A DNA stretch of 51,061 bases, taken from an uncultured Candidatus Saccharibacteria bacterium (lineage in GTDB: Bacteria > Patescibacteriota > Minisyncoccia > Minisyncoccales > JAHCRE01). The translations under genes were made by a program, and so were the position numbers. Below are positions 1-41,573 of this stretch, in pieces (position 1 is the stretch's first letter; the number at the start of each line of letters is the position of its first letter). The stretch covers positions 1 through 51,061 of the forward strand of contig CAYHAF010000001.1 in NCBI GenBank assembly GCA_964354555.1, in the 5' to 3' direction. The notes under the pieces were generated by a model. The model was given only the letters and a program-made list of their open reading frames with translations. It made no database searches and was not told where the DNA came from.

Positions 1-929
1 TTTTTGTTTTTTCTTCTTCCAACTGATAAATCTTGGCGTATAAAATCTTCATTGCTTTCTCCCTGTTCTGGGCTTGCGATCTTTCACTTTGGCAGGAAAC
101 ATTAATACCGGTTGGCAGATGAATCATTCTTACTGCTGATTCAGTTTTATTGACATATTGACCACCAGGCCCTGAAGACTTAAATGTTTCTAATTTTAAA
201 TCACTCTGATTGATTTTAATTTCCGAATTTTCTCGCCCGCCTGAATTTTCTCCAGAAATTTTGGCGGGTAAAGGAATATCAGGCAAAACTTCAACTAAGG
301 CGAAAGAAGTGTGGCGTAGTTTTTTGGTTGAAAAAGGCGAAATCCTGACTAATCTATGGACCCCCGTTTCTTTTTTCAAAAAACCATAAGCCAAGTTTCC
401 CTTGATTTCTAAAGTTACTGATTTCGTTCCTATTCTACCTTCCGGTCCGCCGCCTTCGCCAAAAGACTGAGAAAGTATCTGGGTTTTGTATCCTTTTCTT
501 GTGCAGTATCTCTCATACATTCTAAGCAGCATTGTTACCCAGTCCTGGGCATCTTGTCCACCAGCTCCAGAAAAAATCTCTAAAATTGCGTTTCCCTTAT
601 CGTATTTGCCTGAAAGAAAAATTTCCAATTCTTCTGACCTAATCTTTTTTTCCAATCCCTGAATTCCTTTCTCAAATTTATCGTCCTGAACCGTTTTTAA
701 TTCCCCTACTTCTTTCTCTAATTCATCAATTTTTAATACTTTTTCCTCCAGATAAGCTATTTCTTGATTAATCTTAGCTGCCTCTTGAGGATCGTGCCAA
801 AAATCAGGATTTTGGGCCCTTTTTTGCAATTCTTCAAGTCTTTTTTTCTTATTATCTAAGTCAAAGACAGTCCATCAACTGATGGAACCTTTTTTCTAAT
901 TCTATTAATTTTTGAGCTGTTTCAGACAT
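1..929 (-). CDS. prfB: peptide chain release factor 2, 3' end runs off window, programmed +1 frameshift
   Basis: Manual translation from ATG at 929: [22 protein letters not shown], then in-frame TGA (861-863) inside CTTTGAC (860-866). The +1 frame continues [12 protein letters not shown]...RISPFS...[24 protein letters not shown] (SPF and GGQ motifs). Absent from the ORF track because of the frameshift and truncation. Confidence 0.9.
236..268. repeat. 33-nt palindromic insert (PE-F arms CCCGCC/GGCGGG), in-frame inside prfB
   Basis: CCCGCCTGAATTTTCTCCAGAAATTTTGGCGGG is exactly 11 codons ([11 protein letters not shown] on the minus strand), in the linker preceding the GGQ domain. The arms resemble those flanking tRNA-Met at 14226-14333. 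Confidence 0.7.
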
Positions 930-6252: not shown

Positions 6253-6681
6253 GCTGTCCTAGTAAGTTGAGTGATTGCCCTAAACTTTCTGAAAAGAAAG
6301 TCGGGAGGAAAGTCCGAACTCTCCCCCGCCCTCTAAGCCTTATGTTTCTCCATCCATGTAAATCAACACAGGGCATAGAGGGCGGGGTAAAAAGATAGTG
6401 GCTAACAGCCATCCACCGTAAGGTGCGAGGTGCGAACAGAGACGCTGAGAGACGAAAGTCTCGAAGCGCCCAGTCGAATGACTGGGCGAGCCGAGCACAT
6501 AACTTGTTATGTGCTCGGGTGAAACGGCTAAATCCTTATTGAGTGCAAGAACAAACCAAAAGTTATCCGAATATGGAAAACTTTTGTGAAAAGTAGTTCG
6601 CTTGAGTCAAACTGTAAGGTTTGACCTAGAGTAATAATCACTTTAAAACAGAATTCGGCTTACGGACTTACTAAGGACACC
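6253..6681 (+). ncRNA. rnpB: RNase P RNA (bacterial type A-like), carrying an inserted palindrome
   Basis: GGGAGGAAAGTCCGAAC (P4 5' strand, 6303-6319) and ACAGAATTCGGCTTAC (P4 3' strand, about 6649-6664). P1 pairing TGTCCTAGTAAGT (6255-6267) with ACTTACTAAGGACA (6666-6679). GNRA-type loops GTAA and GAAA. Confidence 0.85.
6324..6387 (+). repeat. PE-B hairpin inserted in the RNase P RNA gene
   Basis: Perfect 12-bp arms CCCCGCCCTCTA/TAGAGGGCGGGG. Left arm is 15/15 and right arm 15/16 identical to the arms flanking tRNA-Thr (1258-1272, 1342-1357). Confidence 0.8.
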
Positions 6682-6716
6682 GAGCACATAAATTTTTATG
6701 TGCTCGGTTTGTTTTC
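6680..6716 (+). terminator. hairpin plus T-tract after rnpB; the stem duplicates an internal rnpB hairpin
   Basis: CCGAGCACATAA atttt TTATGTGCTCGG then TTTGTTTTC. The same 12-bp stem occurs at 6491-6518 inside rnpB. Confidence 0.5.
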
Positions 6717-9543: not shown

Positions 9544-11203
9544 CTTTTTTTTCTTCGTTGTTTTTATTATTTAAAGATTTTTCTATAGCTTCTCTTAATT
9601 CTCCCAAGTTAATCGGCTTTTTTATTTTTTTAGAATTAGAAAATGGTGTTGGCTCAGCCTTAAACGCTTCATTTAAAGAAATGGCTCTGTTTTGAGATGG
9701 GTCTGGAGTAATTCTTTGATTAGTATTTTGGCTTTCCGATTCTTTAATAATAGTATTATTTTTCTGTTTTTTTATTTTGCCTAAGCAAGTCTTGCAATAT
9801 ACTGGCCTTACTCCATCAGGAGGAAAGATGACTTTTGTCCATTTGTTACATGAAGAACATTTAGCATCATATAAAGCTTGTGTCGGCTGCGACTGGGGAA
9901 TGAAAACTTTTGGCACTTCTAAAACTTTTGACCAGCGGGCTATTTTGTCCTCAACTACTTTTCTTGAAGTTCCGTATCTCTCTCTTGAAACTTTAATAAT
10001 TTTTTCTTTATTTGATTTTGGTGGTTTTTCTGTCGGAGGCAAAGTTTGGGCAGAAAAAGGGCTGCTTGCTAATCCATCAATCATTAATTTTAAATAAATA
10101 TTGTATTTTGCTGAATTAACCAAATCTTCAGCAGTAAACTCAGGAGAAAATTCTCTTTCTAAAAATTCAGCGTCTTCGGCTCCAACCCGAAAACACATAA
10201 TTGTTCCAACGTTTCCGAAAACAGCATCTCTTACTTCTTCCTCCATCTGAGTGATATATTGGTGCCCGAGAACGAGGCCTAACCTGTATTTCCTGGCTTC
10301 AGATAGAATATTAACAAAAGATTCAGTGGCGAAATTCTGGAACTCATCAACATATAAGAAAAAATCTCTCCTCTTTTCTTCTAATATATTCACCCGGGAC
10401 ATGGCCGCCAATTGTATTTTTGTTATTAAAAGCGCCCCTAAGAGCATGGAATTGTCCTCTCCGATTCTTCCTTTTGATAGGTTCAAAATTAATATTTTAC
10501 CTTCATCCATAATCTTTCGCATATCAATAGTTGAGCTTACCTGGCCGATAATATTCCTAATCAAAGGGTTGGAAATAAATTGTCCGACTTTATTCTGAAT
10601 GGCGGCAGTTGCCTCAATTTCATACCTTTGGGTGTATCTGGCATATTCGGTAACCCAAAAAGACTTGACCACAGGGTCAGTAATTTTTTCCACCACTTTT
10701 TTTCTGTATTCAACGTCAGCCAACATTCTATTTATCCCAAGCAAGGTAGAATTCGGATACTCCAAAAGCGCCAAAATTGAATTGTTTAAAATATATTCCA
10801 TTCTGGCTGACCAAACGTCCGGCCAGATTTTCTTGAAAACTCCCATCAGTCCCGAAGCTACCAAGTGCCTCTGCGTAAAACCAACGCTCTCCATCACATT
10901 GAAAGCAATTGGATATTCTACATCGGCAGGGTTAAAATAAACAACGTCATTGACTCTGTTAGAAGGTATAAAATCCAGCAAACTTTCTGCCGCTTCCCCA
11001 TGAGGATCAACAAAACCCACTCCTCGACCAGCCATAATATCCTGAATAACCATATTTTCCAAAAGAGCGGTCTTCCCCATCCCTGTTTTACCAACAACAT
11101 AAATATGCCGACGTCTGTCGTCGAGTTTTACCCCAAATTTTTTCCTTTCGTTTCTAAAAGTTGTCTCGCCGAGAAAAATTATATTATTATTGTTATTTGG
11201 CAT
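9521..11203 (-). CDS. TraD/VirD4-like P-loop ATPase with C-terminal CxxC...CxxC zinc ribbon
   Basis: 560 aa. Walker A GKTGMGKT, Walker B FFLYVDEFQNF, no TM segment. C-terminal CSSCNKW...YCKTC. Confidence 0.7.
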   Translation of the reverse strand: MPNNNNNIIFLGETTFRNERKKFGVKLDDRRRHIYVVGKTGMGKTALLENMVIQDIMAGRGVGFVDPHGEAAESLLDFIPSNRVNDVVYFNPADVEYPIAFNVMESVGFTQRHLVASGLMGVFKKIWPDVWSARMEYILNNSILALLEYPNSTLLGINRMLADVEYRKKVVEKITDPVVKSFWVTEYARYTQRYEIEATAAIQNKVGQFISNPLIRNIIGQVSSTIDMRKIMDEGKILILNLSKGRIGEDNSMLLGALLITKIQLAAMSRVNILEEKRRDFFLYVDEFQNFATESFVNILSEARKYRLGLVLGHQYITQMEEEVRDAVFGNVGTIMCFRVGAEDAEFLEREFSPEFTAEDLVNSAKYNIYLKLMIDGLASSPFSAQTLPPTEKPPKSNKEKIIKVSRERYGTSRKVVEDKIARWSKVLEVPKVFIPQSQPTQALYDAKCSSCNKWTKVIFPPDGVRPVYCKTCLGKIKKQKNNTIIKESESQNTNQRITPDPSQNRAISLNEAFKAEPTPFSNSKKIKKPINLGELREAIEKSLNNKNNEEKKGENTKGL

Positions 11204-14098: not shown

Positions 14099-14153
14099 CC
14101 CTGTTAAATAATTTCTCTTTTGGGAAATTCCCGCTTTGCGGGATTTAACAGGG
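14099..14153. repeat. PE-E palindromic element in the T loop of the outer shell
   Basis: CCCTGTTAAAT ... CCCGCTTTGCGGG ATTTAACAGGG. The same arms and inner hairpin occur at 45018-45081. Confidence 0.75.
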
Positions 14154-14199
14154 CGGGCCGACGACCTAGCGCTTACTCGCCCCCACACCATAATTATTG

Positions 14200-14385
14200 T
14201 GCCAGAGGTGGGGGTCGAACCTTCACCCGCCTAAATTTCTAATTATGGCTGCGAGAGGATTTGAACCTCTGACCCAACGCTTATGAAACGTTCGCTCTAC
14301 CACTGAGCTACGCAGCCAAAAATTTTTGGCGGGCAAGCGACCTCTCGCTTATGAAACGAATGCTCTACCACTGAGCTACTCTGGC
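14200..14385 (-). pseudogene. middle split tRNA(CAT)-like shell, interrupted at the T stem by PE-F arms enclosing tRNA-Met
   Basis: GCCAGAG TA GCTC AGTGGTA GAGC A TTCGT TTCATAA GCGAG AGGTC, then CCCGCC (14328-14333 on plus) ... GGCGGG (14226-14231), then GAAGG TTCGACC CCCAC CTCTGGC A. Acceptor 7/7, residual T stem only 3/5. Confidence 0.6.
14246..14317 (-). tRNA. tRNA-Met(CAT), elongator or Ile2-type, innermost gene of the nest
   Basis: GGCTGCG TA GCTC AGTGGTA GAGC G AACGT TTCATAA GCGTT GGGTC AGAGG TTCAAAT CCTCT CGCAGCC A. Canonical, 72 nt. Confidence 0.9.
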
Positions 14386-14529
14386 CGAATTTGGTGTGGG
14401 GGTGAAAAACGAATGCTCTTCCGGGGTGATTTTTAACGCCTCGCAGGGACGCTCAACTAAATCACCCGTGTAAGACAAGCAGTTGTCTTACACCCACTGA
14501 GCTACGCCGGCCCAGACCAAACTCTCTTG

Positions 14530-39815: not shown

Positions 39816-41573
39816 TTATTCTAAAATCGCACGGATTCTTCTTACTCCAGCACCCGATGATTCTTCTTTTATGATTTTAAATTTACCTAACTCTGAAGTT
39901 CTGTTAGTATGGGGTCCGGCACAGATTTCTCTTGAAAAATTACCTACCGAATAAATGCTGACTTTTCCAGGGTATTTTTCCTTGAAAAAGGCTAAACTGC
40001 CTGATTTTAACGCCTCCTCGTAATTCATTTCTTCTTTTTTAACTTCTAAATCTTCTTTAATTTTTTGATTTACCAAATCTTCCACTTTTTTTATTTCTTC
40101 TGGAGTCATCTTTCGGGGATGAGAAAAATCAAATCTTAATCTTTGAACCGTAATATCAGAACCCATCTGCTTCACATGAGACCCTAAAACATCTCTCAAT
40201 ACTTGGTGTAATAAATGGGTGGCGGTGTGAAGTTTTGCCGACTGATAAGTCGCCTCTTTTCCCACTCCACCAAACTTCTTTTCTGCACCAGCTCGGGAAA
40301 TTTTTCGGTGCTGCTCAAATGCTTTCTTAAAACCTTCGGTATCCAAACTTAAGCCTTTTTCTTTTGCTAATTCCTGAGTTAATTCAAAAGGGAAACCAAG
40401 AGTATCAAAAAGATGAAAGCAATCCTCTCCTGAAATATTCCCTATTTTTGAGATTTTTTCAAATTGCGTCAATCCCCTTTTTAAAGTTTTCTCAAACTTT
40501 TCTTCTTCATTTTGAATTGCAACCAGAATATCATTTTCTCTTGTCTTTACTTCTAAATATATCTCTTTATATATTTCAATTACTTTTTGTGCTAAAGGAA
40601 TTAAAAAATTCTTCGGTAAATTAAGTAATTTTCCGTACCTAATTGCTCTTCTTAAAACTCTTCTTAAAATATAGCCTCTTTCAACATTTGAAGGAAAAAT
40701 TCCTTCTGAAATTAAAAAAACTGCACTTCTTATATGGTCGGCAATAATTCTATATGATTTTAAATCTAAAGTATAGGGTTTATTTGCGTTTTTTTCTATC
40801 TCTTTAATAATCGGAAAAAATAAATCTGTTTCAAAAACTGATTGTTTTTCTTGAACTACAGCCATTAATCTTTCCAAACCCATCCCGGTATCAACACCTT
40901 TTTGTTTTAATGGCGTTAATTTACCATTTTGATCCTGATAATATTCGTTAAAAACTAAGTTCCAAACTTCAAAACCTTTAAGATAAATTTCACTGGTCGG
41001 ACCGCATGGACCTTCTAAACCCGTTGGCCCCCAGAAATTATCTTCTCTCCCCATTTTTTTTATCTTTGATTGGGAAATACCTAAATTCAGCCATATTTTT
41101 TCTGACTCTCTATCTTCAGGAATAACTTGCCCTGAGTCTGTCGAAGGGTCACCGGCGAAAACTGAAACGTAGTCAATTTTTAAGCCTAATTCTTTAACTA
41201 TGAACTCATACGCCGATTCAATTGTTTCTTTTTTAGAATAACCTGCCCCGTAGGCCCCGCCCTTTTCTGAAAAAGAGCGGGGTCCTTCGGGGTCTCCGAA
41301 GCTGAAATTCCCTAACATCTCTACAAAAGTTAAATGGCTTATATCCCCTACTGTTTCTATATCAGAAGTCCTAAAACATTTCTGGCAGGAAATGACTCTT
41401 TTTCCATAAGGAGATTCTTTGCCTAAAAAATACTCTTTAAATTGCTGCATTCCGGCTGTAGTAAATAAAACACTTGGATCAGTTGGCAAAAGCGAAGAAG
41501 AAGGTACAATCTTATGCCCTCGTTTCTCAAAAAAATCCAAAAATTTTTGCCGAATTTCATCAGAATCAATCAT
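39816..41573 (-). CDS. alaS: alanyl-tRNA synthetase, short form (585 aa), with two palindrome-derived in-frame inserts
   Basis: GNFSFGD, editing-domain HTATHLLH and CAGPH motifs. Much shorter than the roughly 870-aa canonical enzyme. Confidence 0.9.
   Translation of the reverse strand: MIDSDEIRQKFLDFFEKRGHKIVPSSSLLPTDPSVLFTTAGMQQFKEYFLGKESPYGKRVISCQKCFRTSDIETVGDISHLTFVEMLGNFSFGDPEGPRSFSEKGGAYGAGYSKKETIESAYEFIVKELGLKIDYVSVFAGDPSTDSGQVIPEDRESEKIWLNLGISQSKIKKMGREDNFWGPTGLEGPCGPTSEIYLKGFEVWNLVFNEYYQDQNGKLTPLKQKGVDTGMGLERLMAVVQEKQSVFETDLFFPIIKEIEKNANKPYTLDLKSYRIIADHIRSAVFLISEGIFPSNVERGYILRRVLRRAIRYGKLLNLPKNFLIPLAQKVIEIYKEIYLEVKTRENDILVAIQNEEEKFEKTLKRGLTQFEKISKIGNISGEDCFHLFDTLGFPFELTQELAKEKGLSLDTEGFKKAFEQHRKISRAGAEKKFGGVGKEATYQSAKLHTATHLLHQVLRDVLGSHVKQMGSDITVQRLRFDFSHPRKMTPEEIKKVEDLVNQKIKEDLEVKKEEMNYEEALKSGSLAFFKEKYPGKVSIYSVGNFSREICAGPHTNRTSELGKFKIIKEESSGAGVRRIRAILE

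Follow-up and report, generated by a model that had tools for sequence, protein, structure and literature searches.

An in-frame palindrome in a patescibacterial release factor 2 gene is probably a gene-less miniature of a GIY-YIG hairpin element found across the Candidate Phyla Radiation

The mobile GC clusters of yeast mitochondria are GC-rich palindromes that spread through an AT-rich, compact genome and occasionally come to lie in frame in coding sequence. In bacteria, the Rickettsia palindromic elements (RPE), palindromic repeats of about 100-150 bp, occur in frame in many housekeeping genes (Ogata et al. 2000, reviewed in PMC10969869), while MITEs (miniature transposable elements with inverted repeats; e.g. 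Correia/NEMIS and RUP) are short, non-autonomous copies that retain the terminal inverted repeats of a parent element and in some instances form in-frame fusions (PMC10969869). The REP superfamilies described in PMC3733652 carry GTAG/CGTC heads. Single-domain GIY-YIG enzymes named Ssn cut single-stranded DNA (ssDNA) beside the hairpin repeats (SRM/NTS) on either side of their own genes; the repeat has more copies scattered across the genome, each nuclease lineage has a separate repeat, and the layout is like that of an insertion sequence (Nat Commun 2025;16:2388, PMC11893778). Full-text searches of the literature gave no description of palindromic, MITE or REP elements in the Candidate Phyla Radiation (CPR). 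Here, a palindrome is described from a 51,061-nt stretch of DNA (the window; contig CAYHAF010000001.1 of assembly GCA_964354555.1, positions 1 to 51,061) of an uncultured, ultra-small Candidatus Saccharibacteria bacterium, where it occupies positions 236-268 within prfB, the gene for release factor 2 (RF2). The palindrome belongs to a family of hairpins, designated family B, and is probably a gene-less miniature of a CPR-wide GIY-YIG hairpin element that is tolerated, and translated, as a surface loop.

The source genome (G000; 0.9 Mb, 35% GC, 141 contigs, 94%-complete, CPR/Patescibacteria) has a single long frame at 236-268, the minus-strand prfB open reading frame (ORF; 2-929, start ATG at 929-927), which runs off the start of the contig and is therefore cut at its 3' end. 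The ORF was assigned to RF2 by its PCRF and RF-1 domains (PF03462, PF00472) and GGQ motif, and possesses the programmed +1 frameshift site CTTTGAC (866-860, minus strand). The palindrome noted in the sequence-only reading of this DNA was confirmed: its letters are CCCGCCTGAATTTTCTCCAGAAATTTTGGCGGG, i.e. CCCGCC TGAATTTTCTCCAGAAATTTT GGCGGG, and it amounts to 33 nt and 11 in-frame codons of RF2. It had been called perfect, which did not hold, as the 6-bp G/C clamp is followed by one mismatch and then seven further pairs, two of which are G.T on the plus strand and mismatches on the mRNA strand. Folded as RNA, the plus strand reaches -19.8 kcal/mol (z -3.3) and the mRNA strand -14.1 kcal/mol (z -1.9). 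The four bases beyond each clamp (TTTA...CGAG on the coding strand, CTCG...TAAA on the plus strand) are canonical for family B by the flank consensus of 80 CPR copies, so that the full unit at this site is 41 nt (232-272) and 5 nt of target were displaced. The last 18 residues of the RF2 fragment (2-55) recur exactly at positions 1-54 of another contig of the source genome (C16:1-54; other contigs are cited in this form below), and prfB thus carries on in C16, with the two contigs abutting. Directly 5' of the prfB start is a long hairpin, ACCCAGTAGAGAAATTTTGAC ... GTCAAAATTCTTCTACCTGGGT (941-1025), that is kept in relatives (L033, about 9700-9790; L035, about 9720-9800); about 15 similar palindromes with GTAG (CCCGGTAGTGAAAATTCGAC ..., CCCCGTAGTAGAATTTCGAC ...) occur in the source genome, and this upstream hairpin may be a GTAG-type REP or a leader structure.

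The RF2 linker is 11 residues shorter than that of the window in all 27 readable orthologs at the order level, and the site lies before the strand leading to GGQ and after a 13-residue stretch. Solved RF2 structures have a 13-residue gap here, after the final strand of domain 2 and ahead of the initial strand of domain 3. Both the lineage-specific nature of the residues and their position just before the GGQ domain, as proposed from the sequence, were thus borne out. Among the nearest metagenomic RF2s, the insert is carried, besides the window, only by P0001, P0002, P0003, and P0019 (85-92% identity), and is lacking from P0020, P0021-23, and P0004-18 (77-86% identity). Carrier DNA reads TCT, TTR CCCGCC...GGCGGG CGR, GAA and non-carrier DNA reads TCW GAA AAR GAR, such that in the window the codons TTA...CGA (233-271, minus strand) supply 13 residues in place of a single Lys (the AAA/AAG codon of the empty allele). 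The proposed in-frame insert therefore stands, with its extent corrected from 11 codons to a net gain of 36 nt, or 12 codons, relative to the nearest empty alleles. The junctions are identical in every carrier and the insert is open and in register in all five. Its presence in five independent assemblies excludes an assembly artefact. In an AlphaFold2 model of P0001 (pTM 0.70), the per-residue confidence (pLDDT) falls below 50 only at residues 187-202, between two well-modelled strands; we read the insert as a loop that the protein tolerates at its surface, in the hinge ahead of the GGQ domain.

The carrier sequences also record the history of the hairpin. One carrier (P0019, locus L031) has a perfect 15+3+15 palindrome, CCCGCCAAAATTTTC GGA GAAAATTTTGGCGGG, with an mRNA hairpin of -25.1 kcal/mol (z -4.9). 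The core is identical in the window, L032, L033, and L160, and differs from the L031 version by four substitutions, including two Phe to Ser changes, that weaken the mRNA hairpin by about 11 kcal/mol (about -25 to -14); what stands in the window is a perfect palindrome in decayed form. When the insert was left out of the alignment, the RF2 tree did not unite the carriers in one clade (approximately unbiased [AU] test, p = 0.003 for protein; p = 0.02 for DNA, 540 nt), and a single clean gain was rejected by these tests. The same Lys codon is lost in all carriers, and identities in the flanking sequence are mosaic, with the non-carrier L035 nearest to L033 upstream of the site and to L032 downstream. 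The carriers and the non-carrier P0020 come from Joint Genome Institute samples with neighbouring accession numbers, taken as one series. Because of the identical junctions and mosaic flanking identities, one insertion origin followed by homologous recombination among related lineages is favoured over repeated insertion, though no clear recombination tract was found around the prfB insert and loss or regain of the insert may have occurred.

Family B is not confined to prfB. Hairpins of this class number 12 in the source genome, compared to 0-1 in ten Markov-1 simulated genomes, and CCCGCC occurs 116 times against about 25 expected; a chance palindrome was ruled out by this simulation together with the species-genome scans described below. 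The search for further copies of the arms, suggested on first reading, returned about 12 family B copies in the source genome and more across the CPR. Six host genes contain the hairpin in frame: those for RF2, TrmD (C26:5658), KsgA (C39:384, C86:2289), RtcA (C62:2772, C97:797), Ogt (C15:2013), and a nucleotidyltransferase (C2:35069). Other copies include a nested pair upstream of dnaE (C24:4500-4557), copies at C13:283 and C2:36061, and an apparently solo arm (C13:7615). Within the window, family B arms bracket the tRNA-Met(CAT) gene (14245-14318; bracket 14226-14333, minus strand), reading on the tRNA strand as CTTG and CCCGCCAAAAATTT on one side and AAATTTAGGCGGG and TGAA on the other. This bracket is lodged in the T-arm of an older tRNA-Met remnant and its flanks (CTTG ... 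TGAA) are canonical; the likeness first seen between the prfB palindrome and the tRNA-Met bracket is genuine, as both share the same arms and the same canonical flanks. A search of the window with Rfam returned tRNAs only and no other known RNA family.

Nested arms around whole tRNA genes were also observed at 1150-1440 and 14100-14460 of the window (Thr, Met) and at L033 8180-9330 (Gly), and the arm-enclosed tRNA genes lie within what is left of older tRNAs with matching identity. An HNH-like ORF together with a tRNA-Thr is enclosed by CCCCGCCC arms in L033; the corresponding place in the non-carrier L035 is taken by plain genes for tRNA-Gly and tRNA-Thr. The two RtcA loci of the source genome (C62:2772-2850 and C97:797-840) are strain variants, both with the family B hairpin, that differ by a 12-residue segment (PAPYRNEISGAG) just 3' of the hairpin, making a second small insertion possible.

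In one genome from each of 185,579 species (596 Gb), an exact scan with the pattern CCCGCCWAAATTTN{1,30}AAATTYWGGCGGG recovered 87 stretches, compared to roughly 0.1 expected by chance (calculated). By record titles, nearly all derive from metagenome-assembled genomes (MAGs) of Patescibacteria representing many candidate phyla, the exceptions being one bin labelled 'Gammaproteobacteria' and one Bathyarchaeia bin. Under the strict pattern, copy numbers are low, with one match each in 3 of 41 genomes (the source genome and two of 40 relatives). Anatomy and hosts were assessed for 80 fetched copies, roughly 25 of which are located within ORFs over 200 aa. Hosts confirmed by Pfam were GatB, UvrC, MnmA, GAPDH, KsgA (at two different sites), PCMT, and DnaX, with TrmD identified by motif. 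As the sequence is palindromic, only three reading frames exist, and each gives a recurring peptide: PAKI[SF]..N[LS]GG in the RF2 frame, [RSNCHY]PPKF...KFRR[AV] in the TrmD frame, and [AT]R[LQ]NF...N[LF]GG in the third. Frames that put TAA or TAG in an arm were not seen inside ORFs among the 80 copies, and the stop-free frames would be the expected remainder of translation and purifying selection.

Outside the clamps, the 80 copies follow the consensus YTYR before CCCGCC and YRAR after GGCGGG, commonly as CTTG/CAAG, TTCA/TGAA, TTTA/TAAA, and CTCG/CGAG, a conserved inverted pair in place of direct repeats. The arms are conserved, the tip is variable yet complementary, and new copies are often found in the tip of an older one. 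Arm position 7 was considered as an orientation mark and rejected, as the two W positions are free to mismatch (46 of 80 mismatched) and correlate only loosely with CTTG...TGAA compared to TTCA...CAAG flanks. Some sites are occupied recurrently. The site right after the YTRP motif of TrmD holds a family B hairpin in seven unrelated CPR lineages (G000 C26:5534-6247; L038, L040, L041, L141, L079, and L116), one with two tandem copies; on the TrmD tree the occupancy of this site needs 7 changes and carriers are scattered (AU p = 0.01). Two further genomes (G003, G004) have a copy elsewhere in the same TrmD loop, and a C-terminal site in KsgA is common to the source genome and a Nealsonbacteria MAG. 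The recurrent TrmD and KsgA sites point to a site preference. At several sites the arms overlap native codons of the same sequence, with the left arm providing the R-P codons at the TrmD YTRP site, the right arm lying on W-R-V codons in TrmD of G003 and G004, and P-A-K codons overlapped in GAPDH; in sequence terms, this overlap hints at microhomology.

A parent element emerged when metagenomes were scanned for family B arms with a spacing of 241-301 nt: about 35 of 40 loci enclose a GIY-YIG ORF. The enclosed ORF is 84-100 aa, has the form YVYVL..K....LY.G.T.DLK.R...HN.G.V.ST..R.P..LIY.E.....DA..RE..LKTGWGRN, matches PF01541 at 53-57 bits (cut-off 22.6) with no other domain, and has the UPF0213 protein 1ZG2 as its nearest solved structure. 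The arms of the full element are CCCGCC-W-AAATTTT, and the element measures about 275-317 bp with one gene and nothing else; gene-carrying copies occupy short intergenic gaps, often touching a start or stop codon. The prfB palindrome belongs to this family as an arms-only member that lacks the gene, the full members being GIY-YIG minigenes bounded by a palindrome. Such minigenes (1-7 each) are present in 26 of 30 species genomes with a family B hairpin. In the source genome there are 11 GIY-YIG matches, comprising a 463-aa frame taken as UvrC and ten tiny ORFs or fragments, nine of which are bracketed by their own 11-19 bp inverted repeats in units of 171-332 bp; no bracketing inverted repeat was found for the tenth (C26:4912-5133). 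One of these units has CCCCGCCCTCTATGC arms, which also bracket a tRNA-Thr in the window. Long-cargo family B elements at the species-genome loci were limited to the tRNA-Met bracket and two uninformative pairs in L122. An HNH enzyme as the driver in the source genome was rejected, with one match above the Pfam cut-off, inside a 625-aa frame, and one sub-threshold match.

Compared with the described systems, family B is nearest to RPE in behaviour and to Ssn/SRM in genetics, combining RPE-like residence in frame with an Ssn-like GIY-YIG parent. The parallel with RPE, drawn in the sequence-only reading, gained support from in-frame residence in many unrelated housekeeping genes, namely the six hosts of the source genome and GatB, UvrC, MnmA, GAPDH, KsgA, PCMT, and DnaX elsewhere. 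In both, selfish palindromes lie in frame in unrelated housekeeping genes of a reduced genome, adding a peptide where the fold tolerates it, and in both they also occur in RNA genes and spacers. The likeness is one of behaviour, with the RPE families compared by description; RPE are about 100-150 bp and family B has a core of 33 nt and a unit of 41 nt, the hosts are Rickettsia in one case and CPR in the other, and family B has an identified gene-carrying GIY-YIG parent. With Ssn, family B shares a GIY-YIG-only protein of ~85-100 aa (84-100 aa, single-domain, in family B), and it has comparable bounding repeats and dispersed copies, though in a different form. Each Ssn flank is a complete hairpin; in family B the gene lies between half-arms that together make up a single palindrome, and what is dispersed is copies with these half-arms joined. 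'Patescibacteria' is absent from the main text of the Ssn paper, and in-frame residence in ORFs is no part of the Ssn description (PMC11893778). As the two are likened by architecture, cleavage of ssDNA by the family B nuclease is predicted by analogy. As in MITEs, the arms of family B are terminal inverted repeats common to a longer coding element (about 35 of 40 loci), but there is no target-site duplication, the only ORF of the parent is a GIY-YIG catalytic domain with no recognised transposase, and the parent is only about 280 bp. With the REP/RAYT system, family B shares imperfect palindromes of 20-40 nt, an orienting flank, and a single small enzyme gene bracketed by repeats; its flank is YTYR with no GTAG/CGTC head, the Y1_Tnp gene of the source genome has a separate palindrome, and the enzyme classes differ (HUH Y1 compared to GIY-YIG), so that REP/RAYT is excluded for family B. 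The yeast mitochondrial GC clusters differ in being organellar, in having other sequences, and in having no nuclease gene within the element.

In the proposed history, the prfB hairpin would be a non-autonomous miniature, its arms joined by a 3-nt tip, that came to lie in the linker joining RF2 domain 2 to the GGQ domain 3, a variable stretch exposed at the surface; the event would have taken place in an ancestor of a small set of related species, or in a population of these that was recombining. As the net gain is a multiple of three and contains no stop codon, prfB stayed functional, and the ribosome would since have read through the hairpin as a disordered 12-residue loop. Had an autonomous copy of 280 bp come in, an essential gene would have acquired stop codons, and the hairpin would accordingly have been short on arrival, either mobilised in trans or copied from another hairpin. 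By analogy with the Ssn enzymes, the cognate nuclease may start copying by cutting at or near the hairpin in ssDNA, with repair or template switching then placing the copy, possibly helped by arm microhomology. A bolder version, which we put forward tentatively and consider doubtful, is that the 84-100 aa GIY-YIG protein itself mobilises a new mechanistic class of prokaryotic DNA element, recognising its own ends as an ssDNA hairpin and moving 33-41 nt hairpins in trans into essential genes; if true, no smaller autonomous prokaryotic DNA element would be known than the GIY-YIG element, with its length of about 275-317 bp. It may further be that, in these bacteria reliant on DNA uptake, the host retains some intragenic hairpins as Ssn-type marks governing the recombination of imported DNA, which would explain both the nucleotide conservation in prfB and the recurrent TrmD and KsgA sites.

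Several observations weigh against the origin of the prfB palindrome from a GIY-YIG element. No autonomous family B copy is present in the 94%-complete source assembly, its closest GIY-YIG paralogs reach 54% identity and are bounded by different arms, and family-B-type arms occur at only 4 of 30 GIY-YIG loci fetched from hairpin-holding genomes. Target-site duplication was not found among the 80 copies, where direct matches between the flanks reached 3 nt in five and 4 nt in four, and we know of no strand-transfer chemistry for GIY-YIG enzymes; together these leave the transposition step unexplained. The scatter of carriers on the RF2 tree needs recombination, loss, or regain, and translation of the insert is a step that we infer. 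Finally, the 33-nt core is more conserved at synonymous positions than the rest of prfB, where a dead neutral relic predicts otherwise: none of the 11 core codons has a synonymous difference among the window, L032, and L033, compared to 35-40% of identical-residue codons elsewhere in the gene (about p = 0.005 per pair), and all four GC-clamp codons are retained in five lineages despite a genome of 35% GC. Preferred AT-rich codons account for part of the core conservation, though not for the clamps; either the hairpin is still being read by something or less time has elapsed than the flanks suggest.

This conservation is a point for the main rival reading, a host function, in which the hairpin is kept as an intragenic DNA or RNA structure or as a useful RF2 loop and a mobile origin is only history; the structure might act as a binding site, as a translational pause between the RF2 domains, or as an Ssn-type mark by which the recombination of incoming ssDNA is limited. 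Conservation of the arm nucleotides across CPR phyla and the modulation of transformation by the Ssn/NTS pair in Neisseria (PMC11893778) agree with such a role, which we nonetheless consider unlikely. Read in their three frames, the same arms yield three peptides unrelated to one another in proteins that are themselves unrelated, so there is no shared protein-level function; the version conserved in the window lineage is the weakened hairpin and not the perfect one, close relatives live without the insert, and the preferred codons of the core would lower synonymous change in any case. Movement as a REP-type element by an HUH Y1 (RAYT-like) transposase, instead of a GIY-YIG nuclease, is very unlikely: Y1_Tnp proteins are encoded by the source genome and 22 of 40 relatives, and a conserved mismatch position with 4-nt flanks is as in HUH enzyme substrates, but the RAYT-like gene of the source genome (C4:1850-2566) is flanked by a different repeat (TACGAGWCCSGGWCTCGTA, 10 copies), family B is without the heads of the REP superfamilies, and it is a GIY-YIG gene that lies between the arms in about 35 of 40 loci. 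RAYT was rejected as the driver as its own flanking repeat belongs to a different family.

Two other explanations dispense with an incoming element or with the loop. The palindrome could be of local origin, made when replication switched template at an AT-rich quasi-palindrome (in the empty allele, ATTTCTGAAAA), the likeness to other copies being convergence. The empty site is indeed a weak quasi-palindrome resembling the inner arms, the TrmD and GAPDH arms share their sequence with the native codons that they overlap (R-P, W-R-V, P-A-K), and the tips vary but remain complementary. The empty prfB allele, however, offers no template for the GC clamp and flanks (TTTA CCCGCC ... GGCGGG CGAG), and dozens of unrelated loci, as well as the surroundings of the nuclease gene, show these 13-nt arms with the same flanks, making a local origin highly improbable. 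Least credible of all, and given almost no weight here, is that the insert goes untranslated through a ribosome hop or mRNA excision, as with the byp elements of yeast mitochondria. Bypassing evolved at GC-rich hairpins in AT-rich coding sequence in Magnusiomyces mitochondria, a setting comparable to prfB. Where byp inserts break the frame or carry stops, the prfB insert is 36 nt, open, and in register in five carriers; every intragenic copy in a long ORF (spanning ORFs about 118-580 aa) is likewise open and in register, no ORF was seen to contain an arm in a frame yielding TAA or TAG, and the residues are conserved among carriers, with two Phe to Ser changes that suit an exposed loop. Origin from the GIY-YIG element, followed by toleration as a translated loop, remains the preferred reading.

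Several other repeats of the source genome were observed alongside family B. The RAYT-like Y1 transposase gene (C4:1781-2566; 238-aa frame, HFH motif) has two of the TACGAGWCCSGGWCTCGTA REP copies in frame inside its own ORF, and duplicated pieces of an apparent prepilin peptidase gene lie on both sides of it. A 30-nt double mini-hairpin, TCCGCCnnnGGCGGATCCGCCnnnGGCGGA, occurs in frame in SecA (C37:3436-3465) and MiaA (C21:7449-7478), reading as SAGGGSAFGG and SAQGGSAVGG, respectively, with the SecA copy just before the conserved AIVDEVDSILIDEA motif. In the window, a 51-nt insert in AlaRS (41241-41291) with a CCCCGCCCT...AGAGCGGGG palindrome splits GNFSFGD from Y in frame (PEGPRSFSEKGGAYGAG). 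Further in-frame GC palindromes were found in PolA (C32:7676), PolX (C15:3920), MnmA (C20:11307), and an amidohydrolase (C2:21779). A 28-nt palindrome of dif/Xer-like form, CCGAGCACATAA(C/A)..TTATGTGCTCGG, has two copies in the window (6491-6518 and 6680-6707), 161 nt apart. Eleven tRNA genes lie within 1.4 kb on a short contig (C82:331-1720), several duplicating tRNAs elsewhere in the assembly; the cluster could be a tRNA array of the phage type, or the contig a contaminant.

Overall, the earlier reading of the prfB palindrome is supported and extended. Selfish DNA inside protein-coding genes, so far a hallmark of Rickettsia, is extended to the CPR, where selfish hairpins colonise essential genes and would read as extra protein loops. 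The minimal GIY-YIG nuclease bounded by the same arms provides a candidate driver, in what may be the smallest autonomous mobile DNA unit known, and a testable link to the recently described Ssn site-specific ssDNA nucleases. The hairpins are usable as recombination markers among closely related uncultured lineages. As a source of lineage-specific loops in essential CPR proteins, they are also of consequence for annotators and structural modellers, who should expect such loops in RF2, TrmD, KsgA, GAPDH, GatB, UvrC, and others.

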